Position numbers and translations under genes: made by a program. Below the pieces are notes generated by a model. It saw nothing but the letters and a program-made list of their open reading frames with translations. It searched no databases and was not told where the DNA came from. From an uncultured Kiritimatiellota bacterium (GTDB taxonomy: Bacteria > Verrucomicrobiota > Kiritimatiellia > RFP12 > UBA1067), in assembly GCA_934635045.1 (NCBI GenBank), contig CAKTZA010000009.1, forward strand, positions 4,738 through 68,737: 64,000 bases of DNA. The letters are read 5' to 3'. Each line of letters begins with the position of its first letter. Within the stretch, counting starts at the first letter, position 1. This document shows, in pieces, positions 6,877 through 34,202 of this stretch.

Positions 6877-7050
6877 AACGCAAAGATCGCAAAGACTCTC
6901 GACGCAAAGTCCACAAAGGCTTTGCGTTCTTTGCGTGACCCTCTGCGCTCTTGGCGTTAAAAAACGTCGCGACCTCATCGTTTCGTGTTCTCGCGCAGAG
7001 CCGCCGAGAACGCAGAGATTCGCCAGACGCCTCTGCGTCTCTGCGTGAAG
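6877..7050. repeat. GCAAAG/CTTTGC (and GCAGAG/CTCTGC) hairpin-rich intergenic element, same family as A1/A2
   Basis: Starts tttcaacgcaaag... and ends ...ttggcgttaa, like 24048-24125. Internal inverted GCAAAG...CTTTGC arms. Confidence 0.7.
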
Positions 7051-13826: not shown

Positions 13827-13836
13827 TTTGGGCGAA

Positions 13837-13845
13837 ATTATACCA
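13837..13845 (-). promoter_or_regulatory. Extended -10 box TGGTATAAT, 10 nt upstream of the antiporter ATG
   Basis: Minus strand: TGTGGTATAATttcgcccaaaATG. Confidence 0.55.
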
Positions 13846-13846
13846 C

Positions 13847-13882
13847 AACGGCGGAGATCCTGCAGAAGGAAACTCCGCCGTT
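13847..13882 (-). terminator. 10-bp perfect hairpin (AACGGCGGAG/CTCCGCCGTT) after the TonB-dependent receptor gene
   Basis: Stem arms at 13847-13856 and 13873-13882, 16-nt loop, immediately upstream of the antiporter -10 box. No clear U-tract. Confidence 0.4.
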
Positions 13883-13908
13883 GGCCACAGGGGGCGTCCG
13901 CATAGTCG

Positions 13909-16104: not shown

Positions 16105-16154
16105 TACCTTGTGAAACGCCACATCAATCGCAAAGGTTCATTCGACCGTGCGCC

Positions 16155-17618: not shown

Positions 17619-18509
17619 CTAAATTCGTTTAACGCCATCCGCCACAGGTGGGTTCAGCCGGTTGCTGGACGTTGCCCCCGCTCCCCAGACCTGCCGGAGA
17701 AACGCGAGGCCGCGTTTCAGGGCTTCGAGCGTGACGCCCGCATGGGGCTCAAGCACAAGATGCCGAGCGGCCCGCGCGACGGGCTCCAGCGCGGCAAAAT
17801 CAATCTTCCCCTCGCCCGGCGGCAGGTGGTCGTCTCCGCCGCGCGAGTCGTTGAGGTGAAGTCCCACGGGTTGCACAAACCCCGTCGCCTCGGCTGCTGA
17901 CGCCGCCACCCAGCCCTTCGTCTGCCGCACATAGGCATGGCCCGTGTCAAGCCAGGGCCGCACCCAGTCGCCGACCAGATCCCGGATTTCAGCCTCATTG
18001 GGGAAGCCCTCCAGATACGGCAGGTTCTCCAGTCCGAGCGTCACGCGATGCGCCTCCAGCACGGGCGCAAGCGCGTCAAGCTCCCGCCGAAAGACATCCA
18101 CGAGCTTGCGTCCGACACGCAGGCGTTTCTTCGGACGGTTGCGCGCGAAGATTGTCTGGCAGGGAACGCGCCCCGCGTGGAGAACGACGGCCTCGGCACC
18201 CATTTCCGCCGCAAACGCGATGTTCTTCTTCACGTGGACGCGGGCCAGTCCGCGCGCGGCCTCGTCGAAATCGGCGAGGAGGTAAAGTTCGGGATAGCCG
18301 CACGGCGCGGAGAGCGGCACCGGACAAAAGGCGTGAATGGAGCGGACGGGCATCTCGTCCAGCCGCGACTTGAAGCCCGCAACATGTTCCATCGTCGTGT
18401 GGAAGCCCAGTTCCAGCGCCTCGAACCCCAAGGCTTGGGCCTCTTCGACAATCGCTTCGCCGGACGTCAGCCGTCGATTGTTCCAATTGGTCGAAAGCGC
18501 GAACGTCAT
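17619..18509 (-). CDS. Xylose-isomerase-like TIM-barrel (sugar phosphate isomerase/epimerase family) protein
   Basis: Start at MTFALSTNWN (ATG 18509), 2 nt after the DUF58 stop. The track's 86-aa N-terminal extension overlaps the DUF58 gene. Sequence pattern ...GFEALELGF...AVVLHAG...GLENL... Confidence 0.55.
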   Translation of the reverse strand: MTFALSTNWNNRRLTSGEAIVEEAQALGFEALELGFHTTMEHVAGFKSRLDEMPVRSIHAFCPVPLSAPCGYPELYLLADFDEAARGLARVHVKKNIAFAAEMGAEAVVLHAGRVPCQTIFARNRPKKRLRVGRKLVDVFRRELDALAPVLEAHRVTLGLENLPYLEGFPNEAEIRDLVGDWVRPWLDTGHAYVRQTKGWVAASAAEATGFVQPVGLHLNDSRGGDDHLPPGEGKIDFAALEPVARAARHLVLEPHAGVTLEALKRGLAFLRQVWGAGATSSNRLNPPVADGVKRI

Positions 18510-18511
18510 GG

Positions 18512-19510
18512 CTACCGCTTGCGCGCGCGCCGCTTGAAGAGCGCACGCACGGCGTCGATGTACGGACGGTCGGTCGCGATCGGCAGCGTCTCGATGCCCG
18601 TCTTGAGGAAGAACCGCCGCAAGTCCTCGGTCTCGGACGCGGCGCGCGCGGTAAACGCACGGCGCACCTTCGCGCTGGACGTATCCACGAGGACGAGCGC
18701 CCCCGTCTCGGGGTCTTCGAGCTCCACAAGCCCCACGTCGGGCAGCGCGCTTTCCGCCGGATCGCACACGGGCACGCAGATGAGGTCGTGATGCCGCGCC
18801 GCCGCACGCAGGAGCCGCTCGGCAGAAGAACGGGCGTCCGCACTTTCCCCTTCCGCGCCCTTTCCTTCTTCCTTCTTCCCTCTTCCTTCTTCCTTCTTCC
18901 CTCTTCCTTCTCCCTTTTGCCCTCCCTTCTTCCTTTTCCCTTCTGGCATGAGGAAGTCGCTCACGAGAAAGACGACGGCGCGGCGCTTCTGGACGCCGTT
19001 CAGGAACTTGAGCGCGCCCTCGATGTCCGTGCCGCCCTGCGCGTCGTCCTCGGCGGCCAGCACCTCACGCACGAGGCGCATGACCGAGTCGCGGCCCTTG
19101 CGCGGCGGGATGTACTTGACGATCCGGTCGGAGAAGAGGACGAGGCCGATCTTGTCCTGGTTGCGGATCGCCGTCAGCGCGAGTAGCGCCGTCACCTCGG
19201 CGGCGAGCTCCATCTTCGAGCGGCGGACGCTACCGTAGCCCTGCGAGCCGGAGACGTCCACGAGAAAGAGGATCGTCAGCTCGCGCTCCTCGGCGAAGCG
19301 CTTGATGTACGGCACGCCCGTCTTCGCCGTCACGTTCCAGTCGATCGTGCGCACGTCGTCCCCGACCTGGTAGGGGCGCACCTCGTCGAATTCGACGCCC
19401 TGTCCCTTGAAGGTCGAGTGGTAGTCGCCCGCAAGCTGGTCGTCGATCAGCTTGTTGGTGAGGATCCGTATCTTCCCCACCTTCGCCATCAGTTCCTTTA
19501 CGTCAGTCAT
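18512..19510 (-). CDS. DUF58 (VWA-like) protein, usual MoxR partner, with in-frame KKEEG low-complexity insertion
   Basis: YHSTFKGQGVEFDEVRPYQVGDDVRTIDWNVTAKTG...LFLVDVSGS is the DUF58 signature. The insertion PEGKRKKGGQKGEGRGKKEEGRGKKEEGKGAEGE is encoded by the pyrimidine run 18845-18945. Confidence 0.8.
   Translation of the reverse strand: MTDVKELMAKVGKIRILTNKLIDDQLAGDYHSTFKGQGVEFDEVRPYQVGDDVRTIDWNVTAKTGVPYIKRFAEERELTILFLVDVSGSQGYGSVRRSKMELAAEVTALLALTAIRNQDKIGLVLFSDRIVKYIPPRKGRDSVMRLVREVLAAEDDAQGGTDIEGALKFLNGVQKRRAVVFLVSDFLMPEGKRKKGGQKGEGRGKKEEGRGKKEEGKGAEGESADARSSAERLLRAAARHHDLICVPVCDPAESALPDVGLVELEDPETGALVLVDTSSAKVRRAFTARAASETEDLRRFFLKTGIETLPIATDRPYIDAVRALFKRRARKR
18845..18945. repeat. 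Pyrimidine (CTTCCTTCTTCCCT) run in the DUF58 gene
   Basis: Encodes GKKEEGRGKKEEG on the minus strand. Confidence 0.85.
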
Positions 19511-19550
19511 TGGTCATCCACCTCCACAATCACCTCTTATCCAAAAGGCC

Positions 19551-19688
19551 GCAAAGGCTTTGACGCAAAGGCCTCCAAGGCGCTTGCGCTCTTTGCGCTT
19601 CCCTTCGCGTTCTTTGCGGTAAGGCACCAACCGTCTGCTTTCTCATGTGAGTTACGTCTCCTCGTCCGGCACGACCTCGCACGTCTTC
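19551..19688. repeat. Repeat A1: GCAAAG-type element plus a remnant of the 3' end of the small gene 24146..24358
   Basis: Aligns with 24054-24191 (mostly identical by eye), including cgtctcctcgtccggcacgacctcgcacgtcttc, which in A2 is coding sequence. Confidence 0.8.
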
Positions 19689-19753
19689 TTATTTACAATT
19701 ATCATGTCTGCCATCTCACACCACATTCTCTACATCCATCGTGGTTTTTCCCA

Positions 19754-21190
19754 TCAGATTCTCGCCTTCAATCCCGTGATCTCGCCCACATCGAGTTTCG
19801 TAAACGCGAAGCACTTCCTACCGAGGTCTTTCAACGACGCACCGATGAGATAGAGTTCCTTGTCGTCAAGGATGAGAAACCGGTCATGAAACGCCGCGCT
19901 TGTCTTCACGGAAAGGCCGCCATATTGAGCGTTGAACTTCGCGACATCGCTGTCCGCAACTTTGTTGCCGCGCACAGACGTCACAACTTCCACCTCGACC
20001 CCTTTGCGCTTTTTCGCAAGCATGTCAAGCGTTCCCGTTCCAACCCAGCTGTCAATCAACAGAATCGACCTCTTCGCCCGGGCTATCAATCTCTCCATCA
20101 GCGAACAGGCGTCCCACAACTGCCCGTCATAGAACACACCCTGCAAAGGCGGTTCCTTCGTCTGAATGAAGAAATCAACCTTACCCTCAAGCATCGACAA
20201 CCTCTCATCGTGTCCGGCCAACCGACGATCGATCCGATCCTCCAGCAGACACAACCTCTGGTTGACCGCATAGCCTTTCAGCAGATACTCGCGCAAAACA
20301 CCCGTGGCCCATTGCCGGAACTTCGTAGCCCGCAATGAATTGACGCGGTAGCCGACGGCGATGATCATGTCGAGATTGTAGAATGGGACAATTCGTGAAA
20401 TCATCCGCCCACCCTCGTTTTGAACCTGTGCAATTTTTGCACAGGTTGACGCCGCCTCAAGTTCGCCTGTCTTGTAAATGTTGTGTATGTGACGATTGAT
20501 GACCGTTCGATCCACGCCAAACAACTCGCCAAGCCGGGACTGATTGAGCCATACCGTCTCGTTTTCCACGCGAACGTCCAACCGCATTGTCTCGTTCGGC
20601 TGGTAGACAACGATCTGATTTTCCATGTTCTCCCTCATGACATCCATCTGCACAGGGTCGAATGCTGTCACCGTCAGGCCTTTCTCGACATACGATTTAA
20701 GGCTGTCGAAGACAAACGGCATCGAACGTCCGCCCGTCTTCGGATACGGCTTCGCGTAGAAGGCCGCGTCGATCCGAACGACGGGACAGCGCGACGAGCA
20801 GACGTAGACCTCCGCCGCCTTGCGGCCCAGCAGCTTCAGGGGCGTGGTCGCCTCCGCCAATTCGTAAAGCGCATACGTCTCGCCATGGGCCTTCGCCGGT
20901 TCGGCAAGGGAATAGCCCGTCGCCGCCAGTTCCTTGCATCCGACAACCGCCTTGAAGTGTGCCGTGAACGCGAGTGGACGCGCCCCTTCGGCAAAGAGAA
21001 CGATGCCGCCGACACGCTCGTGGAACGCAAGTTTTCCGCACTTCGGCAACGGCAGGTTGTAGAGCCTTTTCGCGGCAATCCACGCCGCGTTCTCCGGCCG
21101 ATACGTCCCGACCAGGACAATGTGCCCAGTGCCCCCTGCCCGCACCGCACGGCGCATCCGCTTGCAATTCTCTCTCCCGCTTTCCTTCAT
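19754..21190 (-). CDS. Fusion protein: about 158-aa unknown N-terminal domain (identical to that of the MTase at 25234..26748), RhuM-family core and PLD-like C-terminal region
   Basis: ETVWLNQSRLGELFGVDRTVINRHIHNIYKTGELEAASTCAKIAQVQNEGGR...FYNLDMIIAVGYRVNSLRATKFRQWAT matches the RhuM family pattern. C-terminal AFHDRFLILDD. Own TTTGGTATAAT box 7 nt upstream of ATG 21190. Confidence 0.7.
   Translation of the reverse strand: MKESGRENCKRMRRAVRAGGTGHIVLVGTYRPENAAWIAAKRLYNLPLPKCGKLAFHERVGGIVLFAEGARPLAFTAHFKAVVGCKELAATGYSLAEPAKAHGETYALYELAEATTPLKLLGRKAAEVYVCSSRCPVVRIDAAFYAKPYPKTGGRSMPFVFDSLKSYVEKGLTVTAFDPVQMDVMRENMENQIVVYQPNETMRLDVRVENETVWLNQSRLGELFGVDRTVINRHIHNIYKTGELEAASTCAKIAQVQNEGGRMISRIVPFYNLDMIIAVGYRVNSLRATKFRQWATGVLREYLLKGYAVNQRLCLLEDRIDRRLAGHDERLSMLEGKVDFFIQTKEPPLQGVFYDGQLWDACSLMERLIARAKRSILLIDSWVGTGTLDMLAKKRKGVEVEVVTSVRGNKVADSDVAKFNAQYGGLSVKTSAAFHDRFLILDDKELYLIGASLKDLGRKCFAFTKLDVGEITGLKARI
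20648..21122. repeat. 475-bp direct repeat N, copy 1 (N-terminal domain of the RhuM fusion)
   Basis: Line-by-line comparison with 26254-26728 showed no mismatch. Confidence 0.9.
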
Positions 21191-21197
21191 GCCGCGT

Positions 21198-21206
21198 ATT
21201 ATACCA
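21198..21206 (-). promoter_or_regulatory. Extended -10 box TGGTATAAT, 7 nt upstream of the RhuM-fusion ATG
   Basis: Minus strand: TTTGGTATAATacgcggcATG. Confidence 0.55.
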
Positions 21207-21262
21207 AAGTGCGCCGCCTCAGCGGCACAATGCCCCAAAAGACACGAACGACTCGCAGGCTT

Positions 21263-22975
21263 TCAGCCTCCGTAGCTCACGAAACCGAAGTTCCCATTCG
21301 CGTGGATGCGGCGGATCGTCTCGGCGGCGAAACACGCCTGGTCGGCCACGTTCAGCCGAATCGGCCGTTCGGTCGGCAGCCCCAAATGCGTCAGCACGAT
21401 CTTCAGGATCGTCGCCGGGTTCTCGAAGCGCGCGGGCGCGGACACGCCGACGGCGATGTAGACGTCCTCCATCGGCGCAATGCCGACGCAGATCGTGATG
21501 CCCTTCTCGCTGCAGCGGCTCAGACTCTTCTCCATAAGGAAAAGCTCCTCGCCCGTCAGGAGGTCGCGGCACTTGAGACCGACGCCTGCCTTCATCGCCA
21601 GAATCTCCAGCCACGTGTAGCGGTAGTTCGCGTAGTACGTCGCCGCGCGCGCGTCAATGTCATCGAATTCCTCCTTCCGCGCCAGCACACGCCGAATCGC
21701 CGGACCGTCGCCCTGGTCATCCATCATTGACGCGAAGTCTCCCACCACGCAGTCGAGCGTCGGGTCGAGGTCGGCCAACGAGTCGCGCTCTTCAAGGAAA
21801 CCGAGCCGAACCGCCGCCTGACGCCGTTCCTCCTGCGTCAGCTCCGTGACGACGTGGGCGCGGACAAAATCCATCGTGACTTGCCGGACATCCTCGTAAA
21901 CCGCGAGCTTGGCGTCACGCCTCGTGGCGTCCTTGACGAATGCGAAATCGATTGGGCCATTGTAGGCGGACAGCGGAATGTCTTCAGGCTGGATGTAGTC
22001 GCCGTCATCCGGCTCGTCTGAATCGGAATCGTCGTCCCAGTCGTCCACGCCCTCGTCGCGGCCCTCGCCGAAGTCGAACACGTCGTGGATGTCCTCGTCT
22101 GCCTGCTCGTCGACGAGCCCAAGGTCGGCAAGCTCGCGCGGCGTCCGGCCGCGCCCTTCCCACGTGCGCGTCGTGTCCAAAAGCGGGCTGAGGGCCTGCG
22201 CGAGACGCTGGACGGCCTCATCGTCGGACGGTTCCCAGTCGCAGTTCTCGCGGATGTACTTGAGCGCCGTGACAACCTTCGCGCCATTGACGCGCGCGTT
22301 GCACTGGACGCCCAGCGTGTCCAGTTCCTGTTCAGCCCTGTCAAGACGATACGCTTTCTTGACGAACCTCTCGAACGCGCGGCTCTCTTTCGTTTCCTCG
22401 GCCGCCATCGGCTCCTCGTAGAGGAGGAAGTCGTCTTCCGGCAGCACGGCGAGGTCGAGCTTGCGGAAACTGGCCATGGTGTCCGCGACCGTGCGCGTGA
22501 TCTCGGCGTTCGCGTCCTTCGACGGAGTCGGCTCCTCGTCCCAATCACTCGACGTCAGGTCGTGGTAGACGATGACGCGCGGCTCGTCCGCCTTCAGCTG
22601 CCAGGTCGAGAACCAGATCTCCGGCGCATCGCACGGCCCGTCCAGCAGATGCTCAAGGTCTTCCGGCTCGGGGCGGTTCGCGAAATAGTCGTGAAGCCGG
22701 TCGACGAGCGCGTCGAGTTCGGCGACCGTCATCGCGTCCGAAATCGGCGCGTCGTGATCTTTCGCGTAGCCGTTGTAAAGCGAGACGAACTCCTCCAGCG
22801 TAAGGACGCCATAGAGGTTCGCCGCCGCGTTGAGGCAGCGCAGCGCGAATTCCTCGCGCGCGTTCAGCTCGGCGGGCTCGTGCGCACCCTCGTCGCGCCC
22901 GCATTCTTCCTCCGCCGCGCTGTCGTCCTTCCAGACGCCATCCGGCCCAATGATCGTGTCAAATGGTCTTTTCAT
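21263..22975 (-). CDS. Hypothetical, strongly acidic 570-aa protein
   Basis: Start at MKRPFDTIIG (ATG 22975), in ATGA overlap with the upstream stop. Asp/Glu tracts (DDWDDDSDSDEPDDGDY). No motif I recognise. Confidence 0.5.
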   Translation of the reverse strand: MKRPFDTIIGPDGVWKDDSAAEEECGRDEGAHEPAELNAREEFALRCLNAAANLYGVLTLEEFVSLYNGYAKDHDAPISDAMTVAELDALVDRLHDYFANRPEPEDLEHLLDGPCDAPEIWFSTWQLKADEPRVIVYHDLTSSDWDEEPTPSKDANAEITRTVADTMASFRKLDLAVLPEDDFLLYEEPMAAEETKESRAFERFVKKAYRLDRAEQELDTLGVQCNARVNGAKVVTALKYIRENCDWEPSDDEAVQRLAQALSPLLDTTRTWEGRGRTPRELADLGLVDEQADEDIHDVFDFGEGRDEGVDDWDDDSDSDEPDDGDYIQPEDIPLSAYNGPIDFAFVKDATRRDAKLAVYEDVRQVTMDFVRAHVVTELTQEERRQAAVRLGFLEERDSLADLDPTLDCVVGDFASMMDDQGDGPAIRRVLARKEEFDDIDARAATYYANYRYTWLEILAMKAGVGLKCRDLLTGEELFLMEKSLSRCSEKGITICVGIAPMEDVYIAVGVSAPARFENPATILKIVLTHLGLPTERPIRLNVADQACFAAETIRRIHANGNFGFVSYGG

Positions 22976-23991
22976 GTTCTGATCGTCCTTTGCCGTAAGT
23001 TTTCCCTCGTACAAGCTCCCTGTTCGTCGATCTCATTCCAATTCCCCAGCACCTGCCAGGTTCCGCCGTTGTCCGCGCCGACCCGCCGCAGACGGCCCTC
23101 CGCCTTGAGCAGACGAAGATTCCTTTCAATCCCCGAACGCGAAAGCCCCGTTTCCCGCACCAGATCCGCCGTCGTCCATTCCGGGCGGCTCGCAAGCGCA
23201 GCCAGGATTTTCTCCTTACTTTTCTCCTTACTCTTGGCGTCGACCTTTTCGCTCGCCAACGCACGCCGCTCCCGATAAAACGTCACCTTCAGGGTCGCCG
23301 ACTCTTCGGAAACGACGGGCACCGGAAGCCCCATCTTGGCACAGGCCTCAAAATAGCGCGACACGCCACCACCCCAGCCCTCGACTTCGCCCATGTATTC
23401 CAGCGCCGCGCCAACGGCATGGTTCCGAAGCTTCGAGAATCCGTTTCGCGCGTCTTCGACCGTCATCTCGCGGACGAGGCCACCGGGCGAGACAACCTCC
23501 AGTCGATCATCATAAACGGCCACGTAAACGCACGACGGCGACAGGTAGTCACGATGGAAGACGGCATTGCAAATGGCCTCGCGAATCGCATCGATCGGCA
23601 ACTCGTAGACGTCCCGCCGCGCCGTGCCGACAAGTTCCGTGCCCACGCGAATGTTCCGCAGCACGAACTGATAGACCTTTTCGCCGCTCTTCACGTCCAC
23701 GGCAATCAGCGACTTGCCTTCGACGACAGCGGGCTTCACATCGATGGAGATGTGCGGCGAGCACATGTTCAAGACCGCATCGACGATGGCGTCCATTTCG
23801 GCGGCGACCTTTTCGCGCGGGATGCCGACAATCCGCCCCGTCTCGTTCTCGACGCCGAACAGCAGCCGTCCGCCGCGCCCGTTGGCGAACGCCACGACGG
23901 TCTTGACGAACTTCAGCGAGTCCTTCGGACGCGCCTCCTTGAACTCAAGCGAGGCATTCTCGCCCTGTGCAATCTGTTCAAGCAACGTCAT
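22972..23991 (-). CDS. AlbA_2/Schlafen-like divergent-AAA domain protein with HATPase_c_4-like and C-terminal wHTH regions (COG2865 type)
   Basis: GENASLEFKEARPKDSLKFVKTVVAFANGRGGRLLFGVENETGRIVGI (AlbA_2 pattern). IREAICNAVFHRDYLSPSCVYVAVYDDRLEVVSPGGL. Start at MTLLEQ (ATG 23991). Confidence 0.65.
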   Translation of the reverse strand: MTLLEQIAQGENASLEFKEARPKDSLKFVKTVVAFANGRGGRLLFGVENETGRIVGIPREKVAAEMDAIVDAVLNMCSPHISIDVKPAVVEGKSLIAVDVKSGEKVYQFVLRNIRVGTELVGTARRDVYELPIDAIREAICNAVFHRDYLSPSCVYVAVYDDRLEVVSPGGLVREMTVEDARNGFSKLRNHAVGAALEYMGEVEGWGGGVSRYFEACAKMGLPVPVVSEESATLKVTFYRERRALASEKVDAKSKEKSKEKILAALASRPEWTTADLVRETGLSRSGIERNLRLLKAEGRLRRVGADNGGTWQVLGNWNEIDEQGACTRENLRQRTIRT

Positions 23992-24053
23992 GCCGCCACG
24001 CCTCTTGTCTGAAGAAACCGCAAACAAACCATCTCGTCCTCGGCATTTTCAAC

Positions 24054-24191
24054 GCAAAGGCTTTGACGCAAAGGACGCAAAGGCGCTTGCGCTCTTTGCG
24101 GTTCCCTTCGCGTTCTTTGCGTTAAGGCACAAACCGACTGCTTTCTCATGTGGCTTCCATCTCCTCGTCCGGCACGACCTCGCACGTCTTC
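24054..24191. repeat. Repeat A2 (covers the last ~15 codons of the small gene plus the downstream spacer)
   Basis: See A1. Confidence 0.8.
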
Positions 24192-24358
24192 GAATAGTCC
24201 GTGTGTGGCCCGCAGGCCAACGACAACTTCACAATGTCAATCATGCCACCACCGACAAGGCCGTCGGCCACCCACTCGGCATCGTCAGGCGATTCCGCCA
24301 TCACCTCGATGCGGGCGGTGTAGGTTTCGGTGACATCAACAAGATAGCGACGCTTCAT
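24146..24358 (-). CDS. Small hypothetical protein (70 aa) downstream of the restriction gene
   Basis: ATG 24358 preceded by a strong SD (GAAGGAGAAGCC). Its last ~15 codons lie inside repeat A2. No recognisable domain. Confidence 0.4.
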   Translation of the reverse strand: MKRRYLVDVTETYTARIEVMAESPDDAEWVADGLVGGGMIDIVKLSLACGPHTDYSKTCEVVPDEEMEAT

Positions 24359-24368
24359 GGCTTCTCCT

Positions 24369-25244
24369 TCAACAGGCAAGATCCAGCGGCAAGTCGGAAA
24401 TATCCTTAAGGCGCTTACCGTCAATCATGTTGTTTAGCAAGACCATCGCCTCGTCACGGCTCTTCGACGAACATTTCTTCACCGCCGACAAAAGCTCATA
24501 CAACGCGAAATGATAAACACAGTCAATGTCGCCCGTGCCAAGGGCCAGCGAGGCGATACGCGAGGGCGAAGGTTCTGCCGTAACGACCATGATATGCGGC
24601 ACACGCCCCTTGCGGTCGCGCATCAGGTTCAAGGCTTCCGTCCGACTGTTCTGCGCACGGTCGCTCCGCATTGTCCACTTCGCCGAAATCGACGCATGGA
24701 GGATTGGCTTGCCTCCGTTCTTCTTGCGCAAGTCGGCTTTCAGGCAGATCGAATCATCGACAAAATCAGCAAGTCGATTGATTTCATCGTCCTCACACAA
24801 AGCACGGGCCACAACCACATCCGGCGACACGAGATAGTCGTTGCCCAACGCCGCCTGGAGTTTCGGATTCTCGCGAACAGCCTCCGCCAAGGCGAAGAGA
24901 TGTTCGTACTGGGCGAAATCCGCCGTCTTGACACGGCTCTTGTTTCCCAACCTCGCCACACTCCAAGTACCGGGGCGCAGATTCTGCAATTTCGGAAACG
25001 TCGACTCCACGAATTTTGCAACGGCATCCTCAAAACTGGCTCCGGCTGTCTGCCCTTTCTCCTTGGCACACGCATATCCCGCGCCAAGGAATCTCGCAAT
25101 CCCGTCGGCTATCGCACACGAAAACGCATTCTTTCGGTCGGCATTGGACGCCACCCCCTCCTTGTCAAAGCAGAGAATGCCGCCCTGGACAAGCCGATCA
25201 TGGAAAGCCTTTCTGGCTTCGGCAAACACAACCTCACGCCTCAT
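24369..25244 (-). CDS. Type II restriction endonuclease, NgoMIV/Cfr10I/Bse634I family (CCGG-core recognition likely)
   Basis: SPD...(47 aa)...SAK-WTM-RSDR-AQNSRT-E. The D-to-K spacing of 47, K-to-E spacing of 14 and RSDR four residues after K reproduce, as I recall them, NgoMIV D140/K187/R191-S-D-R194/E201. Start at MRREV (ATG 25244). Confidence 0.7.
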   Translation of the reverse strand: MRREVVFAEARKAFHDRLVQGGILCFDKEGVASNADRKNAFSCAIADGIARFLGAGYACAKEKGQTAGASFEDAVAKFVESTFPKLQNLRPGTWSVARLGNKSRVKTADFAQYEHLFALAEAVRENPKLQAALGNDYLVSPDVVVARALCEDDEINRLADFVDDSICLKADLRKKNGGKPILHASISAKWTMRSDRAQNSRTEALNLMRDRKGRVPHIMVVTAEPSPSRIASLALGTGDIDCVYHFALYELLSAVKKCSSKSRDEAMVLLNNMIDGKRLKDISDLPLDLAC

Positions 25245-26748
25245 GGTTGAGACACCTCCTAATCTGTATGCCCACAGCCTGTGCAACAGGCGGCGGAAAC
25301 GCATTCCCAATCATCCGGCAAGCCGCTGTCTTGCGCGCCCCGAAGTCCCAAGCTTCCGGGAAACCCTGAATGCGCGCAATCATCTCCTTCGTCAGTCGCG
25401 GCGAGCCGGTGAAATCACGTGACGGCGGCTCATTGGCTATGCCAAGCCCATCCACATCCAACTCTGCCCAAGCTCGTCGCGCACGCGTCGGGCCGAGATC
25501 CGGGCCACCATGTTTCTTGCTTCCCCCAACAATCGTCGGAGCGATGCGGTTCGCGTGTTCCACCCACATATCCAACCCGCGCCAGCCATTCGCCCCCATC
25601 AGTTCGCGCAGGGCTTCGCCCACGGTCGGCGCAGCCCTGCGGCTCGGTTCGGGATAGGCGAAGTCGAGCGGCTGGTCATTGCGGATGCCGACAATGATGA
25701 CGCGCGGACGAATCTGCGGAACGCCATAATCGTTCGCCTGCAGAAGCTTGATCTGCGTACGATAGCCAAGTCGGGAAATCGAGTCAAGGATGCGCGCGCG
25801 ATAGGCAGCAAACTTCGGATCCAGAAATCCCCGCACGTTTTCCAACATCACGGCGCGCGGACGGATTTCCGAAATCAGGCGGATGGCCTGCGGGAAGAGA
25901 TCTCGTTCGTCGTCTTCGCCCAACTGGCGCGAAGCAACGGAAAACGGCGGACACGGGACGCCGCCGGCAAGGAGATCGACGCCTTGATACGGCGTGCCGT
26001 CAAATTGATGCACGTCCCCGCAGATGACATTCCACTCCGGCTTGTTGCGCCGCAGAACGGCACAGTAGTCTTTCTCGTATTCGACAAGCGCAACATGCCG
26101 GAAGCCGGCGCGGTCAAGTCCGATGGCCTGTCCCCCGGCCCCCGCACAGATTTCGACACACGTCAGTTCGCCCGCCGCACGCGCCGCCGCCAGAAGGCCG
26201 TCGGCGACTTTCTGCCCGTAGTCGAAACCGAAACTGTCCTGGAAGAAGTCGTCCTGCACAGGGTCGAATGCTGTCACCGTCAGGCCTTTCTCGACATACG
26301 ATTTAAGGCTGTCGAAGACAAACGGCATCGAACGTCCGCCCGTCTTCGGATACGGCTTCGCGTAGAAGGCCGCGTCGATCCGAACGACGGGACAGCGCGA
26401 CGAGCAGACGTAGACCTCCGCCGCCTTGCGGCCCAGCAGCTTCAGGGGCGTGGTCGCCTCCGCCAATTCGTAAAGCGCATACGTCTCGCCATGGGCCTTC
26501 GCCGGTTCGGCAAGGGAATAGCCCGTCGCCGCCAGTTCCTTGCATCCGACAACCGCCTTGAAGTGTGCCGTGAACGCGAGTGGACGCGCCCCTTCGGCAA
26601 AGAGAACGATGCCGCCGACACGCTCGTGGAACGCAAGTTTTCCGCACTTCGGCAACGGCAGGTTGTAGAGCCTTTTCGCGGCAATCCACGCCGCGTTCTC
26701 CGGCCGATACGTCCCGACCAGGACAATGCTCGAATCCCGCCGCTTCAC
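25234..26748 (-). CDS. C5 cytosine DNA methyltransferase with the same ~158-aa unknown N-terminal domain as the RhuM fusion
   Basis: Motif I CVEICAGAGGQAIG, motif IV GGVPCPPFS, motif VI AVMLENVRGF. GTG start 26748 overlaps the moxR stop (GTGA). Confidence 0.85.
   Translation of the reverse strand: MKRRDSSIVLVGTYRPENAAWIAAKRLYNLPLPKCGKLAFHERVGGIVLFAEGARPLAFTAHFKAVVGCKELAATGYSLAEPAKAHGETYALYELAEATTPLKLLGRKAAEVYVCSSRCPVVRIDAAFYAKPYPKTGGRSMPFVFDSLKSYVEKGLTVTAFDPVQDDFFQDSFGFDYGQKVADGLLAAARAAGELTCVEICAGAGGQAIGLDRAGFRHVALVEYEKDYCAVLRRNKPEWNVICGDVHQFDGTPYQGVDLLAGGVPCPPFSVASRQLGEDDERDLFPQAIRLISEIRPRAVMLENVRGFLDPKFAAYRARILDSISRLGYRTQIKLLQANDYGVPQIRPRVIIVGIRNDQPLDFAYPEPSRRAAPTVGEALRELMGANGWRGLDMWVEHANRIAPTIVGGSKKHGGPDLGPTRARRAWAELDVDGLGIANEPPSRDFTGSPRLTKEMIARIQGFPEAWDFGARKTAACRMIGNAFPPPVAQAVGIQIRRCLNHEA
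26254..26728. repeat. 475-bp direct repeat N, copy 2 (N-terminal domain of the MTase)
   Basis: See copy 1; offset 5606 bp. Confidence 0.9.
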
Positions 26749-27707
26749 GGCACGGGGACTTCGGAGAGGATCTTGTCGATGACCTTGTCGGACGTCACGC
26801 CCTCGGCCTCCGCCTCGTAGGTGAGGATGATGCGGTGGCGGAGGACGTCATGCACGACCTCCTTCACGTCCTGCGGCGTCGCGTAGGCGCGGCCGTGCAG
26901 GAGCGCGTTGCCGCGCGCGGCGAGGTTCAGCGCGAGCGTCGCGCGCGGCGAGGCCCCGTTCTGGACCATCTCGCTCGCCTCGCGCGTCTTGAAGACGATG
27001 TCGAGGATGTAGTCGCCGACCTTCTCGTCGCAGTAGACCTCCTTCAGCGTCGCGCGCAGGGCCGCGACGTCGTCCGGCGTGCACACCGTCTTCGCTTCCG
27101 GTGCCTGCGCATTCTCGGCGAAGCGCTGCATGATGCGCCGCTCGTCCGCCTTCGACGGCGTCTCGACGAGGCACTTGAACATGAAGCGGTCGACCTGCGC
27201 CTCCGGGAGCGGATACGTGCCCTCCTGCTCGATCGGGTTCTGCGTCGCGAGGACGAGGAACGGCTGCGGCAGCTTGTACGTCTCCTCGCCGATCGTGACC
27301 TGCTTCTCCTGCATCGACTCCAACAGGGCGGACTGCACCTTCGCCGGCGCGCGGTTGATCTCGTCCGCCAGGAGCAGGTTCGTGAAGACGGGACCCTTCT
27401 TCGGCGTGAACTCGCCCGTCTTCGGAGAATAGACGAGCGTGCCGACGACATCGGCCGGCAGCAGGTCCGGCGTGAACGAGATGCGCTTGAATTCGAGGCC
27501 GAGCGCCTTGGCGAGCGTGTTGACGGACAGCGTCTTCGCAAGGCCGGGGACGCCCTCCAGCAAGATGTGCCCGCCGGTCGTCAGCGCGAGAATGAGCCGG
27601 TCGACGAGCTTCTCCTGCCCGACGATCACCTTCGCGACTTCTTCGCGGATCTTCGTGACGAGTTCGCCCTGCGCGGCGATGCGGTTTGTGGCTTCCTTGA
27701 GGTCCAT
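26745..27707 (-). CDS. moxR: MoxR-family AAA+ ATPase
   Basis: GHILLEGVPGLAKT (Walker A), LLADEINRAPAKVQSALLE (Walker B region), VLATQNP. Start at MDLKEA (ATG 27707) behind SD GAAGGAA; the track start overlaps the -10 box. Confidence 0.85.
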   Translation of the reverse strand: MDLKEATNRIAAQGELVTKIREEVAKVIVGQEKLVDRLILALTTGGHILLEGVPGLAKTLSVNTLAKALGLEFKRISFTPDLLPADVVGTLVYSPKTGEFTPKKGPVFTNLLLADEINRAPAKVQSALLESMQEKQVTIGEETYKLPQPFLVLATQNPIEQEGTYPLPEAQVDRFMFKCLVETPSKADERRIMQRFAENAQAPEAKTVCTPDDVAALRATLKEVYCDEKVGDYILDIVFKTREASEMVQNGASPRATLALNLAARGNALLHGRAYATPQDVKEVVHDVLRHRIILTYEAEAEGVTSDKVIDKILSEVPVP

Positions 27708-27777
27708 ATCTGTTCCTTCGTGCTGATTTCGGATGTTTGTACTGTTTTGGCTGTTGGTTCGTTTGAAATCAGGTGGC

Positions 27778-27786
27778 ATTATACCA
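27778..27786 (-). promoter_or_regulatory. Extended -10 box TGGTATAAT upstream of moxR (leader ~65 nt)
   Basis: Minus strand: TATGGTATAATgccacc...GAAGGAACAGATATG. Confidence 0.5.
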
Positions 27787-27851
27787 TAAATGCCGCACGG
27801 CGCGGCACGTCATTCGGGGCGGAAACGCCAAGTGCGGCATGGGCGTCAGGG

Positions 27852-28484
27852 TCAGGCCGTGAGCACGCCCCGGAACTTCAGGCCGCCGAAGATGCGGTCG
27901 CAGACGAACGCAACGAACTCATGCCGCCATTCGTCCTCGGTCGCGCCCGGCGGACGGTGACGCGCCCGCCAGATGGGATGGTAGAGCGCGTAGGCGCCGA
28001 GCTGAACCCAGATCGACGCCGACCACAGGTACGCCTCGTGGTCGTTGTCTGTCGCCATGCGCATGAGGCGGAAGAGCCGATTGCGCGCAGGGCTTGCGAA
28101 ATGCTCCTCCAAGTAGTCCTTCACCTTCGACGGATGCATGGTCTCCTGACGGAAGATGCCCGCCGCATAGGCGCCGACGCCGACTTTCGCGTGAAAGGCC
28201 TCCACGAACGTCTCGACCCAGATGTGGACGGCCGCCTTCCACGTGCGCGCATCACGGACGCCCGCCACGACGGCGGCCATCTCCGAACCGTGTGTCGCCT
28301 CGTAGACGCGCTCGACACATTCGCGGTAAAGGCCCTCCTTGCTGTGGAAATGGTAGTTCACGAGCGCACCGTTGACCTTGGCCGCGCGGCAGATCTCCCG
28401 CACGGTCACGCCCTCCAGGCCCTTCTCGGCAAAGAGCCGCGTCGCGGCCTCCATGATCTTCTCCTTGGTCTTGTTCTTCTCCAC
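27852..28484 (-). CDS. TetR/AcrR-family transcriptional regulator
   Basis: N-terminal HTH: IMEAATRLFAEKGLEGVTVREICRAAKVNGALVNYHFHSKEGLY. Confidence 0.8.
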   Translation of the reverse strand: MEKNKTKEKIMEAATRLFAEKGLEGVTVREICRAAKVNGALVNYHFHSKEGLYRECVERVYEATHGSEMAAVVAGVRDARTWKAAVHIWVETFVEAFHAKVGVGAYAAGIFRQETMHPSKVKDYLEEHFASPARNRLFRLMRMATDNDHEAYLWSASIWVQLGAYALYHPIWRARHRPPGATEDEWRHEFVAFVCDRIFGGLKFRGVLTA

Positions 28485-28509
28485 GTGTCTCTGTCTGAAC
28501 CTTTTGTTT

Positions 28510-28523
28510 TAAACGTGCGTTTA
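28510..28523. promoter_or_regulatory. Inverted repeat TAAACG-NN-CGTTTA, candidate TetR operator
   Basis: taaacgtgcgttta begins at the last base of the putative -10 and lies 26 nt upstream of the TetR start. Confidence 0.4.
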
Positions 28524-28552
28524 GAATATCATTTTTGAAACGAACCTGTCAA
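28523..28552 (-). promoter_or_regulatory. Sigma-70-type promoter TTGACA-N18-(TGA)TATTCT for the TetR gene
   Basis: Minus strand: TTGACAGGTTCGTTTCAAAAATGATATTCT. Confidence 0.45.
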
Positions 28553-28568
28553 CGGGATGAGAAGCCCT

Positions 28569-29159
28569 TCAGCGGGACGTCCCACAGAAGAAGATGAGTG
28601 CGGCCAGTTGGAGGGCGAGCAGCCCGTAGACGAGCCACGCGACCTTCCGGCCGTTTGTCGGATCGACCGCCTCGCGCTCGGAGTACTTCGTTACGCCCGC
28701 GATGTAGGCGAGCCAGACCGCCGCCGCGATCCAGACGGGACCGCCCACGGAACCGCCCAGCAGCACATTGCACCCACGCGCCGCGCCCATGAGCAACGGA
28801 TTCTTCGTGCGGTTGTAGAGCTGGATCGCGACCGTCAGCGCGACAAGTACAAGAAACGGGCCGTGACCGAGATAAAGCGCCAGCACGGCAAGGCACAGGC
28901 AGGCCGTGCGCGCCGTCCGCGCCGCGCGCAGGGAGATCTCGCCCGCCGCGAGCGGGCGCGTCTTCGGGTCGGTCGCCGCGCCGACGAGGTCGTTGTCGAC
29001 GAGCCCGTACAGGTACATGCAGACCGAGGCGAGGCAGACGAGGGCGATGTCACCCACGCGCGCGGCGACCAGTCCGCCGCACGCCGCCGCGCCGACCAGC
29101 ACGTCCCCCGGCACGGTGACGAGGTTCTGGACGCGAAAGAGCCGAAGCCACGCGCTCAT
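28569..29159 (-). CDS. Short UbiA-prenyltransferase-like membrane protein (196 aa)
   Basis: FRVQNLVTVPGDVL..., Asp-rich first motif region VDNDLVGAATDPKTRPLAAGEIS, several TM helices. Shorter than typical UbiA members. ATGA overlap with dapB. Confidence 0.5.
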   Translation of the reverse strand: MSAWLRLFRVQNLVTVPGDVLVGAAACGGLVAARVGDIALVCLASVCMYLYGLVDNDLVGAATDPKTRPLAAGEISLRAARTARTACLCLAVLALYLGHGPFLVLVALTVAIQLYNRTKNPLLMGAARGCNVLLGGSVGGPVWIAAAVWLAYIAGVTKYSEREAVDPTNGRKVAWLVYGLLALQLAALIFFCGTSR

Positions 29160-29899
29160 GCCACGACGCCCTTGACGGCATCCGCCAGCACGTCGCGCAT
29201 CGTGTAGATGCCGGGGGCCTGTCCCCGCGCCCAGACGAGCGCCTTCAGCGCGCCGGCGGCGAACGCCGCGCGATCCTGCGCCTTGTGCGTCAGCTCGACG
29301 CGCTCAAGGTCGCCCGCAAACATGACGGTGTGGTCGCCGACGACCGCGCCGCCGCGCAGCGCGTGAATCGCAATCTCGCCGACGGGACGTTCCCCGATGT
29401 CGCCGTGGCGGCCGAAGACGAAATCGTCTCCCAGTCCGCGCCCCTGCGCCGCCGCCTTGGCCAGCATGAGCGCCGTGCCCGACGGCGCGTCCTTCTTATG
29501 GCGGTGGTGCATCTCCGTCACCTCGATGTCGTATGCGGGGCCGAGGATCGTTGCGGCCCGCCGGACGAGATCCACCAGGAGGTTCACGCCGAGCGAGTAG
29601 TTGCCGCTCTGCACGACCGGGATCTTCTGCGCGGCGGCGTCCACGGCCTTCTGCTCGTCGGAGGTGAGGCCCGTCGTGCCGATGACGTAAGGAATACCCT
29701 GCTCGGCCGCCTGCGTGACGAAGCCGGGCACGCCCGCATGATACGAGAAGTCGATGACGCCCTCGGTCTCCTTCGGCCATGTTCGGTCGTAGCCCTCCGC
29801 CACGTCGATCTTGGCGACGACCTCCAGCCCGGCGTCCTTCGCCAGCTCAACCAGTTTCTTTCCCATGCGCCCGGCGGCGCCGACAAGTGCGATTTTCAT
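29156..29899 (-). CDS. dapB: 4-hydroxy-tetrahydrodipicolinate reductase
   Basis: MKIALVGAAGRMGK (NAD fold), TEMHHRHKKDAPSGTAL signature. Confidence 0.9.
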   Translation of the reverse strand: MKIALVGAAGRMGKKLVELAKDAGLEVVAKIDVAEGYDRTWPKETEGVIDFSYHAGVPGFVTQAAEQGIPYVIGTTGLTSDEQKAVDAAAQKIPVVQSGNYSLGVNLLVDLVRRAATILGPAYDIEVTEMHHRHKKDAPSGTALMLAKAAAQGRGLGDDFVFGRHGDIGERPVGEIAIHALRGGAVVGDHTVMFAGDLERVELTHKAQDRAAFAAGALKALVWARGQAPGIYTMRDVLADAVKGVVA

Positions 29900-29931
29900 G
29901 TGTCTTCTCCCATCTCCGCTGTTGAGGCCGT

Positions 29932-29940
29932 ATTATAGCA
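29932..29940 (-). promoter_or_regulatory. Extended -10 box TGCTATAAT upstream of dapB
   Basis: Minus strand: TTGCTATAATacggcc...GGAGATGGGAGAAGACACATG. Confidence 0.5.
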
Positions 29941-29994
29941 AATCCTTCCCCTGGCGTCTTGACGAGGAGTCCTGGCATCATAGTTTCCGTTCAA

Positions 29995-30624
29995 TCATTT
30001 TCCAAGAAATTCTTCAACTTCTCGCTTCAGGCGGACAGACAGAAACGGCATGGCATCCTCTGCTTCAGAGGGTTTTCCAACCTCATTCGAAGAAAGTATC
30101 TTGGCGACAGCAATGGCCTCCTTAATCGTGGCATCATCGCCAAAATTCTCAAAGCGAAGTAAAGCGCGAGACACGACATTCGTAGAATCCACAAAACCCA
30201 CACCTTGAATCTTCTGCCATGCCCTTGCTGATGCCATGTAGGCCTCTTGCCGATCATTGTTCGTATTCATGCAGGCGACATGCAACAGCTGTAGATGCCA
30301 GTACTGCCATTTGTCCGTTGTCAGCAAAGGATGCGCAAGCGCATTCGTCACTGTTTGACAAGCGGCCGCAAGCCAAGACTCGTTCATTGTCGCCCCGAAC
30401 ATTTCAAGTTGCGCACGGACAAGAACCACACGCGCAGACAATGACAACTCCACGTTTGTCGTCTGGTTCACGCATCGGCTCACATAATTTGTAAAGTCCG
30501 TTTCGATCAGGTTTGCCCTGTGGCTCAGCGCATTCGTCACCTCCGTCTCGAAATCTCTCGCGAGAATCGACACACCCGAATTCAGAGTCAACCAAAACAA
30601 GACAAAAACTATATTTCTTGACAT
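29995..30624 (-). CDS. Hypothetical secreted all-helical protein, low-GC gene
   Basis: Start at MSRNIVFVLFWLTLNSGVSILA (ATG 30624), 3 nt after the upstream stop. Composition is visibly AT-richer than the flanks. No recognised domain. Confidence 0.45.
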   Translation of the reverse strand: MSRNIVFVLFWLTLNSGVSILARDFETEVTNALSHRANLIETDFTNYVSRCVNQTTNVELSLSARVVLVRAQLEMFGATMNESWLAAACQTVTNALAHPLLTTDKWQYWHLQLLHVACMNTNNDRQEAYMASARAWQKIQGVGFVDSTNVVSRALLRFENFGDDATIKEAIAVAKILSSNEVGKPSEAEDAMPFLSVRLKREVEEFLGK

Positions 30625-30626
30625 GT

Positions 30627-33600: not shown

Positions 33601-34202
33601 TGGAAGCTGTCAATGCCGATCTCGACAGCCGCGGGGGACTGCGCGCCGGACACGTCGACCTGCGCGAGGCGCGTCCAGCCGCCCGATGCCAGCTGCCAGT
33701 GCCCGAAGACGTCGAGACGGCCGTTGGGCAGGGAGAGGCCATCCGGCCACGCCACCCCCAGCGTCACCGTGTCAGTTCCCTTCTCGATTCCATAGAAGCA
33801 GAAGTTCGTCACCGAAGACAATGTGAGGTTGCTGTCGCTTAATGCGGAGTTGTTGGAGGCGGGGAGGCGCGGAGGGTCTTTGACAGGATCCACAGGATTT
33901 GAGGCGTTTGGCGTATCCGTCTCGGCAATCCTGTCAATCTTGTCAATCCCGTCTAAAAAACCACTCGCCGCTTCGGCGCACCGTTCCTTGTACGTCCGCG
34001 TCACCGAGCCCTCCATCGTCGCAAAGGCCATGAAGCCGCCGAGGACGAAGACCGTCGGCCCGCCCAGCCGCCGGACCGCCGCGCGCACACGGGCGGGACA
34101 GCGCGACAGGCCAAGCGCCAGCGCGGCAAGGGCGACCCCGCCCAAGCCAAGGCAACAGCCCCACAGCACGACCGAGTCAAAAGCCTCTCGATCCAATGTC
34201 AC
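30627..34202 (-). CDS. Giant membrane-anchored/secreted protein with many thrombospondin type-3 (DxDGDG) calcium-binding repeats and a C-terminal His/Cys (clan-CD-peptidase-like) domain
   Basis: N-terminal hydrophobic segments. More than 12 copies of DTDGDGL(x)DG(x)E...GT(D/N)P. C-terminus ...[12 protein letters not shown]...[12 protein letters not shown]... GTG start at 34202; the start is uncertain. Confidence 0.6.

Follow-up and report, generated by a model that had tools for sequence, protein, structure and literature searches.

Insertion of restriction-modification (R-M) systems with long target duplication, and the allelic substitution of one R-M system for another, have been described by Nobusato, Furuta and Kobayashi (Furuta et al. 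2010; PMC2853133). Here we analyze a related locus in 64,000 nucleotides of DNA from an uncultured Kiritimatiellota bacterium (GenBank assembly GCA_934635045.1, contig CAKTZA010000009.1, positions 4,738 to 68,737 of the forward strand), which is called the window below and to which all coordinates refer. In this locus, a 475-bp direct repeat encodes the same 158-residue domain, named N-dom, at the front of two genes: gene B, for a C5 DNA methyltransferase, and gene A, for a RhuM/PLD-like protein. The locus resembles the described systems in that the R-M unit does not reach 20 kb in length, has long direct repeats on both sides (417/423 bp at most in the published survey) but no transposase or integrase, and is replaced by different R-M systems at the same chromosomal site in related genomes. 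It differs from them in that the duplicated target is a coding domain translated in both flanking genes, and in that substitution begins, on the left, within the methyltransferase open reading frame (ORF), at a fixed in-frame position. Furthermore, the empty-site, single-copy haplotype was not found here, either in JGI metagenome contigs or in a collection of approximately 15 billion proteins.

N-terminal autoregulatory regions are established on methyltransferases of the SsoII, EcoRII and MspI types. Like N-dom, the extensions of M.SsoII, M.EcoRII and M.MspI precede motif I on Type II C5-methyltransferases, and some of the R-M families concerned are the same; they are, however, short helix-turn-helix binders, whereas N-dom is a 158-residue alpha/beta domain devoid of a helix-turn-helix. 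Modification-dependent restriction enzymes combine sensors of the PUA superfamily (ASCH, EVE, YTH and SRA) with nucleases in one protein (PMC6765204, PMC7641849, PMC7897488). According to its structural model, N-dom would share with these a small N-terminal beta-barrel domain of the reader type followed by a DNA-acting catalytic domain, and their PLD-, PD-(D/E)XK- and HNH-type partners match gene A, the related protein P0046 and the NOV_C neighbor of N-dom in locus L087. In contrast with these sensors, N-dom matches no ASCH, EVE or YTH profile, and its partners are mainly ordinary Type II methyltransferases, not nucleases.

The PDC-S05/RhuM-family defence candidates of PADLOC include one member with demonstrated anti-phage activity (PMC12881386). 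Residues 189-468 of gene A match the PDC-S05 model end to end. Known members are, however, standalone proteins of approximately 285 residues, whereas gene A has an additional 180 residues shared with the neighboring methyltransferase and an HDR motif instead of HxK. Finally, the locus is reminiscent of polymorphic toxin loci (CdiA-CT/CdiI, Rhs) and of domain movement in the specificity regions of Type I, IIG and III systems, in having a constant N-terminal part and a conserved junction motif; as in polymorphic toxins, the variable C-terminal enzyme is swapped together with the downstream cognate gene, and displaced or extra modules stand in tandem. This is an analogy of architecture only, as there is no secretion or delivery here and the swapped unit is a whole catalytic domain plus restriction gene instead of a toxin tip or target-recognition domain. 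No secretion-associated family was found for these proteins in Pfam, NCBIfam or PADLOC (signal peptides were not looked at), and the partners are restriction enzymes. Thus, what is new here is an undescribed, lineage-restricted domain family and an exchange boundary fixed inside the methyltransferase ORF; otherwise the locus is a variant of known systems.

One domain encoded in two genes

The genes of the region are all encoded on the minus strand, in the order MoxR, gene B, NgoMIV-family endonuclease, 70-residue ORF, AlbA_2 protein, 570-residue protein, gene A and DUF58. The segments 20648-21122 (copy A) and 26254-26728 (copy B) were identical at 475 of 475 positions in a base-by-base comparison at an offset of 5606, and beyond both ends of the repeat the identity was at once at background level. 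The alignment thus bore out the original prediction of a perfect repeat with sharply diverging flanks. Both copies are within long minus-strand ORFs and translate to the same 158 residues, IVLVGTYRPENAAW...TAFDPVQ, as had also been proposed, and the limits of the repeat coincide exactly with N-dom. Copy B (minus strand) provides residues 8-165 of the methyltransferase gene, and copy A (minus strand) residues 24-181 of the RhuM/PLD gene. Among 33 orthologues, the divergence of N-dom per site was 0.31, 0.27 and 0.54 at codon positions 1, 2 and 3, respectively, and there were no stop codons in the frame; therefore, N-dom is a translated domain. The long plus-strand ORFs over the repeat (20483-21730 and 25510-26820) were rejected as high-GC shadows, the divergence peaking at the third position of the minus-strand frame.

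The gene A protein was found in exactly the same form on seven contigs and the gene B protein on six, mostly of 50-200 kb and with the same gene order. Contig L047 differed from the window at 2 of 21,515 bases (99.991% identity) and carried both exact repeat copies. Other assemblies break exactly at the repeat, reaching k = 55, 77 or 141 nt inside it, as expected of a true repeat; L100 and L099 consist of the 5131-bp unique segment with 55 + 55 nt and 77 + 77 nt of repeat at the ends, respectively. A single-nucleotide polymorphism (SNP) specific to copy A, C-to-T at N-dom nucleotide 103 (window 21020), was observed in strains L046 (a Hadza contig) and L098. Because of this SNP, the MEGAHIT contig L098, which enters one copy for 141 nt, reaches 244 nt (103 + 141) into copy A. 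Two distinct copies must therefore coexist in the L046 and L098 genomes, and the single difference between them matches the background divergence of approximately 0.2%; the SNP argues both against an artefact and against rapid homogenization. The adjacencies of the AlbA_2 gene, the 570-residue gene and leader 2 (upstream of gene A), and of MoxR and leader 1, are continuous unique sequence. The repeat is thus real and not a one-off product of assembly; the assembly collapse that would have undermined the prediction is contradicted by the shared gene order, the breaks at k nt and the copy-specific SNP in two strains.

Gene B (25234-26748, minus strand; 504 residues; PF00145, PADLOC MTase_II and DruM models) begins with a GTG codon overlapping the MoxR stop codon. 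Its residues 196-496 make up a complete PF00145 domain (profile positions 2-322 of 324, E = 1e-66), so that one copy of N-dom does head a complete methyltransferase, as predicted. The gene of an NgoMIV-family restriction endonuclease (24369-25244, minus strand; 291 residues as called in L045; PF09015, PADLOC REase_II) follows directly 3' and overlaps the methyltransferase stop codon. The enzyme covers PF09015 positions 1-274 of 275 (E = 1e-116), and the longest ORF extends to 25310. With a complete methyltransferase domain next to its cognate endonuclease, the two form, as judged from their sequences, a Type II R-M pair. The window contains 59 GCCGGC sites against 63 ± 8 expected, a count that is uninformative on methylation or cleavage of GCCGGC; avoidance of the site within the window, as a sign of long-term R-M activity, was not seen.

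Gene A (19754-21190, minus strand; 478 residues; PF13310, PDC-S05) consists of N-dom, a RhuM/ORF6N-like region, a coiled coil and a PLD-like tail. Its ATG is at 21190, and the longest ORF extends to 21238. Residues 189-468 match the PADLOC PDC-S05 model PDLC04879 at positions 3-275 of 285 (E = 1.6e-105), and the gene departs from the standalone PDC-S05/RhuM architecture by the 180-residue N-terminal extension containing N-dom. The "RhuM core" of the original prediction was an overstatement, as only positions 1-65 of the 252 in PF13310 are matched; the PLD-like tail weakly resembles the PLD nuclease Nuc (1byr; E = 0.06). In the same alignment (E = 0.06), the motif H-D-R-F-L-I-L-D, with R for the K of HxK(x)4D, is placed opposite HDKVIIVD of Nuc, and the HDR motif region is kept in P0046. 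A standalone RhuM-PLD gene, 91% identical, follows MoxR in L040, L041, L049, L083 and L084; its start is the ATG at the end of the repeat. GC content is 53% in the RhuM/PLD coding block and 64% in the window. When clustered at 90%, gene A had 2 members and gene B had 214. The degenerate junction pattern of FDPVQ followed by MD.MRENME was not found in JGI metagenome contigs; hence there are no further gene A fusions in that collection.

Enzymes behind N-dom vary among related loci

We assembled 80 loci, 41 from genomes of the GTDB and 39 from metagenome contigs, all of which were from gut or rumen Kiritimatiellia or plausibly mis-binned. In every intact locus, N-dom is followed in the same ORF by a DNA methyltransferase. 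The C5 enzymes among these fall into at least 13 types with <50% identity to each other; in L053-55 the partner is an N6_N4 methyltransferase. The downstream cognate endonucleases vary by locus (NgoMIV, HpaII, MspI, EcoRII, NotI-like and HNH_2). The intact 490-residue protein P0046 has N-dom, ORF6N and the same PLD-like tail, is 38% identical overall to gene A and has another junction. The N-dom plus ORF6N/PLD pairing recurs, truncated, in L057, and in L087 N-dom abuts a NOV_C nuclease-like gene. The proposed survey of attached modules thus gave many partners (C5 and N6/N4 methyltransferases, PLD-type proteins), but the RhuM/PLD fusion itself is rare, with the two-member cluster mentioned above.

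N-dom and the catalytic domain behind it do not share their history. L006 and L007 are 96% identical in N-dom and 27% identical in the methyltransferase, whereas the window and L036 are 41% identical in N-dom and 71% identical in the methyltransferase. When loci with differing cassettes were compared by blastn, the homology was continuous across the upstream gene and N-dom, ended 11-17 nt past PVQ, and restarted in the 570-residue gene or in DUF58. Two syntenic frames were observed: in the clade of the window the variable part lies between MoxR and DUF58, and in a rumen clade the order is gltX, N-dom-X, restriction enzyme, 570-like, phosphoesterase and MTS. In both of these clades, the variable cassette is repeatedly bounded on the right by the 570-residue protein. 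In L091, only the R-M pair is found between MoxR and DUF58. An identical methyltransferase protein is nevertheless followed by three different downstream haplotypes among strains. As a pattern of evolution, then, the predicted head domain with exchangeable effectors is strongly supported by the discordant identities and by the end of homology after PVQ.

Some further alleles were noticed in the same loci. P0006, P0013, P0021, P0033, P0036, P0042 and positions 8001-8200 of L040 are internal-deletion remnants of an R-M pair, in which N-dom or its first 40-170 residues are joined directly to a C-terminal piece of 10-60 residues from either the NgoMIV enzyme or the methyltransferase. The breakpoints are different each time, and thus the whole R-M system seems to have been lost repeatedly and independently. 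The Hadza contig L089 is 99.8% identical to window 23034-22124 and diverges in the middle of the 570-residue gene into a 780-residue ATPase of the AAA_23/SMC_N type, so that further alleles of the island exist within the species. The 3436-bp contig L039 opens within an N-dom that is fused to a methyltransferase (residues 54-158 present) and closes within another (residues 2-25), as though a second genome had N-dom genes in tandem at which the assembly broke.

Age of the duplication and possible products of recombination

The two N-dom copies have 0 differences in 475 positions, compared with 11 in 139 for a second direct repeat of the island, D2 (Fisher p = 6e-8), and the nearest N-dom orthologue differs at 57 of 474 nt (12%). 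Accordingly, the N-dom duplication is much younger than the rest of the island. Of the two explanations originally offered for the identity, very recent duplication is therefore supported (D2 copies being only 92% identical), whereas ongoing gene conversion is not supported, the copies differing by one SNP in two strains. The RhuM/PLD block, with its GC content of 53%, has N-dom on its 5' side and the tail of a 70-residue ORF plus hairpin on its 3' side, and from this it is enclosed in the shell of an earlier R-M cassette. In relatives that have one N-dom only, the cassettes are different ones. The 5131-bp insert between the repeats comprises the catalytic part of the methyltransferase, the restriction enzyme, the 70-residue ORF, the AlbA_2 gene and the 570-residue gene. 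In being <20 kb, containing R and M genes and lying between direct repeats of >30 bp, it agrees with insertion with long target duplication (PMC2853133), and among the five products scanned, Pfam gave no integrase or transposase.

The original prediction also held that recombination between the copies would loop out a 5606-bp circle and swap the effector. Direct repeats can only delete or amplify, and nothing pointed to a programmed or reversible swap. We built the two crossover products as proteins and searched for them in the approximately 15 billion proteins. The deletion product, leader 1-N-dom-RhuM/PLD, was absent from this collection. The reciprocal product, leader 2-N-dom-methyltransferase (520 residues), had an exact match, encoded on three short contigs from three samples that were 100% identical to the window. 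These junction contigs (L094-L096) read from the end of the AlbA_2 gene through the 570-residue gene, leader 2, N-dom-methyltransferase and the restriction enzyme to the 70-residue ORF. They could represent an excised circle, a tandem duplication or another haplotype, and we are inclined, by a modest degree, to take the junction as real. The junction search proposed earlier, made here in assembled proteins, therefore gave a divided answer, with no deletion product and a circle-type junction on three low-coverage contigs. L095 and L096, two contigs of separate studies, have exactly the same terminal base (window 24922, within the restriction gene), hinting at a common strain-level branch point. 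R-M systems are addictive, in that loss of the R-M genes is punished by post-segregational killing; the presence of the reciprocal product and the absence of the deletion product would fit counter-selection of R-M loss.

Predicted fold and distant relatives of N-dom

N-dom had no match in Pfam, NCBIfam or PADLOC, and ten members of the family gave none in Pfam even at E ≤ 10. Searches of PDB sequences with phmmer and hmmsearch yielded nothing relevant. The domain is thus assignable to no family, as had been noted from the sequence. Whether it is a routine annotated methyltransferase extension has a two-sided answer: it is a lineage-wide methyltransferase extension in Kiritimatiellia, borne by essentially all intact homologues, but it is annotated in no library searched. 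In the alignment, W14, Y21, Y83, Y86 and H79 are invariant, and the junction motif F(D/N)PVQ is nearly so.

The structure prediction proposed for the domain gave a confident AlphaFold2 (AF2) model from 20 homologues (pLDDT 88.7, pTM 0.85), with only weak ASCH-, YTH- and EVE-like Foldseek matches. The model is alpha/beta with a barrel-like shape and has no helix-turn-helix. Nearly all of the top 50 PDB matches were ASCH, YTH, EVE, PH0355 or PUA-like structures (E = 0.06-0.5, TM approximately 0.33). In BFVD, ASCH, DUF3850 and "activating signal cointegrator" proteins led the matches, the E-values ranging from 5e-3 at best to 0.1 and TMt reaching 0.57. On the strength of this model, N-dom probably has an ASCH/PUA-like fold, which does not make it a demonstrated member of that superfamily.

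A profile search of 1.84 billion representative proteins gave only 87 matches. In distant ones (E approximately 1e-5), the first approximately 90 residues of N-dom, with the pattern GTYR..W.....YN.P, are found at the C-terminus of C5 or N6/N4 methyltransferases. The link between N-dom and methyltransferases is therefore older than the Kiritimatiellia lineage. No N-dom relative that would point to a phage origin was found in the viral contigs of IMG/VR.

Neighboring genes and other features of the island

The island is flanked on the chromosome by a MoxR AAA+ ATPase gene (left; 26745-27707, minus strand; PF07726) and by a DUF58/VWA gene (right; 18512-19510, minus strand; PF01882, and synteny). 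The small conserved ORF of 70 residues after the R-M pair (24146-24358, minus strand) is called in L045, L090 and L092 and has a homologue in L040. The 339-residue protein with Schlafen/AlbA_2, HATPase_c_4 and winged helix-turn-helix parts (22972-23991, minus strand; PF04326, PF13749) is a typical passenger of defence islands, and its exact sequence was found on 12 contigs.

Homologues of the acidic conserved 570-residue protein (21263-22975, minus strand) lie 3' of N-dom cassettes of any type. The family (199 matches at E ≤ 1e-5, some tagged PF25948) has no known function. Its AF2 model shows helical domains and a C-terminal OB/cold-shock-like barrel; with this model and no Foldseek match below E = 1e-3, the protein was dismissed as a candidate for a hidden recombinase. 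Recombinase or integrase families in Pfam, NCBIfam and PADLOC were not matched by five of the six island products, that is, all but the 70-residue ORF. There were no inverted repeats of at least 30 nt in 18000-30000 and no Rfam families in 18000-28500.

Leader 2 (21191-21262, minus strand) contains a terminator-like hairpin (21229-21210) followed by an extended -10 box, TGGTATAAT; apart from these two elements, scans for terminators and promoters gave background levels. L004, L007 and L008 conserve this segment 5' of their N-dom genes; by its sequence, it is likely to be gene A's own promoter. As the box stops 7 nt short of the gene A ATG, the mRNA of gene A may be leaderless or nearly so.

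The second direct repeat consists of D2b (24053-24191, minus strand), which contains the last codons of the 70-residue ORF and a CGCAAAG-rich hairpin, and D2a (19550-19688, minus strand), which lies between gene A and DUF58 and is what is left of an R-M cassette tail, with the last approximately ten codons of a homologue of the 70-residue ORF (KTCEVVPDEET*) and the hairpin. The two are 92% identical (11 of 139 positions differ). A CGCAAAG-repeat element with an inverted CTTTGCG arm marks the 3' ends of cassettes at window 19550-19612, 24053-24115 and 6879-6929; it is also found in L012, L016, L019, L020 and L021 around 8060-8200. In many rumen homologues the element is in frame within N-dom directly after YNLPLP, adding 13-28 residues, e.g. 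SRKERKGRKDGRA. It looks like a REP/MITE-type element tolerated in what may be a surface loop of N-dom.

Elsewhere in the window, positions 12001-14000 have an AT skew of +0.28 to +0.30 over 2 kb, far above the rest, adjoining or falling within a 737-residue ORF at 13909-16122. In 30001-31000 the GC content goes down to 51%, at the 3' end of the gene of a 1191-residue TSP3_bac repeat protein (30627-34202, minus strand).

Discussion

Beyond what is observed directly, namely the repeat itself, the architecture of the proteins, the discordant histories of N-dom and catalytic domains, the homology breakpoints and the synteny, we consider it probable that the gap between MoxR and DUF58 is a polymorphic defence locus with N-dom as a constant front end and with cassettes swapped by homologous recombination. 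The left homology arm would be the N-dom coding DNA and the upstream gene, and the right arm the 570-residue gene or DUF58. Between the arms, cassettes would be exchanged always in frame just after F(D/N)PVQ, and they would be of several kinds: a methyltransferase catalytic domain with its cognate restriction enzyme, an N6/N4 methyltransferase, or a PDC-S05-type RhuM/ORF6N-PLD-like protein. The strain in the window would have two cassettes in series with one N-dom copy each, the RhuM/PLD cassette occupying the shell of a former R-M cassette. The duplication may have arisen by recombination between conspecific haplotypes or by Campbell-type integration of a cassette circle through N-dom, a route equivalent to R-M insertion with long target duplication, and its recency would explain why the copies are identical or one SNP apart. 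Crossover between the copies would then lead to deletion of 5606 bp or to amplification of the unit, as an evolutionary process and not as a regulated switch. The recombination pathway as a whole is what we infer from these patterns.

Several observations weigh against this interpretation or parts of it. No mechanism of cassette capture was found, and chance illegitimate recombination would hardly produce 16 or more independent in-frame fusions at the same boundary. The MoxR of L022 is 91% identical to that of the window but its N-dom only 50%; whole N-dom-methyltransferase units must therefore also move, and N-dom is not strictly host-bound. The presumed arrangement before duplication, MoxR-N-dom-RhuM/PLD-DUF58, was found neither in JGI metagenome contigs nor among the approximately 15 billion proteins. 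The three junction contigs are short, with approximately 2.4x coverage, and could result from switches of the assembler path via the collapsed repeat. The gene A fusion is limited to one strain lineage, and any function of it is putative. As for N-dom itself, its fold matches are weak (TM 0.33-0.40, no match with E < 1e-3), and no ASCH, EVE, YTH or PUA sequence profile in Pfam matched any of ten members at E ≤ 10.

Other explanations have to be considered. That the window is a chimera of two strain haplotypes joined via a shared segment is extremely improbable: all data do come from short-read metagenome assemblies, and the alternative path leader 2-N-dom-methyltransferase was also assembled, but the same order is found on six contigs of 50-200 kb, L047 is 99.991% identical over 21.5 kb, L099 and L100 give the 5131-bp unique segment with exactly k nt of repeat at each end, the copy-specific SNP in L098 requires two distinct copies in one sample, and both leaders are joined to their upstream genes by continuous unique sequence. 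Programmed switching, in which the 5.6-kb circle would loop out and re-integrate, thereby toggling the enzyme behind the head domain, could account for a perfect repeat bounded exactly by the domain and for the junction of circle or tandem type, which three contigs, each of another sample, show at 100% identity. It is nevertheless very unlikely, since direct repeats give deletion or amplification and not reversible inversion, the region 18000-30000 has no inverted repeats of at least 30 nt, five of six island products (the 70-residue ORF excluded) match no recombinase or integrase, and the deletion product was absent from the approximately 15 billion proteins. Moreover, excision of the circle would remove the R-M genes and so invite post-segregational killing, and the copies drift apart in some strains. 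Rather improbable, too, is the idea that N-dom is an autoregulatory or expression module that binds its own upstream region and gives the plugged cassettes host-tuned expression. N-dom and the upstream leader are constant while the enzymes change, and N-dom replaces the N-terminal region on MspI-, EcoRII- and HpaII-type systems, as such a module would; on the other hand, the model is ASCH/PUA-like without a helix-turn-helix, at least three unrelated leaders precede N-dom, and in the distant relatives the domain is C-terminal on methyltransferases, a place remote from any promoter logic.

The alternative with the greatest claim to attention, although still unlikely, is that gene A is an accidental by-product, in which a deletion or replacement in an old R-M cassette chanced to fuse N-dom, in frame, with the start codon of a RhuM/PLD gene sufficient on its own, leaving N-dom idle. 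This is what one would expect from the 91% identical standalone RhuM-PLD of relatives with the same ATG, from a PDC-S05 profile that starts only at residue 189, from the cluster sizes (2 members for gene A and 214 for gene B at 90%) and from the many decayed R-M derivatives in the locus family. It sits less well with the independent, intact fusion of N-dom, ORF6N and PLD in P0046, which has a different junction, with the same pairing in L057, with the N-dom abutting a NOV_C nuclease-like gene in L087, and with a 478-residue ORF that is intact on seven contigs and has its own promoter-like leader. In addition, the 42 nt 5' of the standalone gene in L040 resemble the 3' end of N-dom (20/42, p approximately 0.0025; not significant by BLAST), and their frame reads FAPV* where N-dom has FDPVQ, which is suggestive of a standalone form derived from the fusion.

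With regard to the polymorphic locus that we favor, a function of N-dom is argued for by purifying selection, by at least 16 independent in-frame fusions at one boundary, by two independent PLD fusions and by the distant methyltransferase-linked relatives; the domain may bind nucleic acid and serve each enzyme attached to it. A bolder version, which we put forward only tentatively, is that N-dom is a lineage-specific universal adaptor, so that DNA-modifying or -cleaving enzymes plugged in at FDPVQ (methyltransferases with their restriction partners, and PLD-type nucleases) share one nucleic-acid or host feature read by the ASCH-like domain, and recombination at the head domain, of which the circle or tandem junction of the three samples would be an instance, drives the gain and loss of cassettes. 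If so, the loci would be plug-and-play defence cassettes, the R-M counterpart of polymorphic toxin loci.

The usual view of R-M systems is that entire genes are transferred; in this locus, the boundary of exchange is within the methyltransferase ORF. Two PLD-type defence proteins, an N6/N4 methyltransferase and at least 13 unrelated C5-methyltransferases have one small domain in common. Should that domain be functional, it would be a new accessory module of methyltransferases, possibly a reader or targeting domain, and the locus would illustrate how domains of defence genes are swapped in nature, as modules and in frame. Should N-dom be just a scaffold for recombination, the locus still shows a coding segment acting as a portable homology arm. 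In either case, the N-dom coding sequence is a simple marker for mining defence cassettes in Kiritimatiellia, a poorly studied lineage of the gut and rumen.

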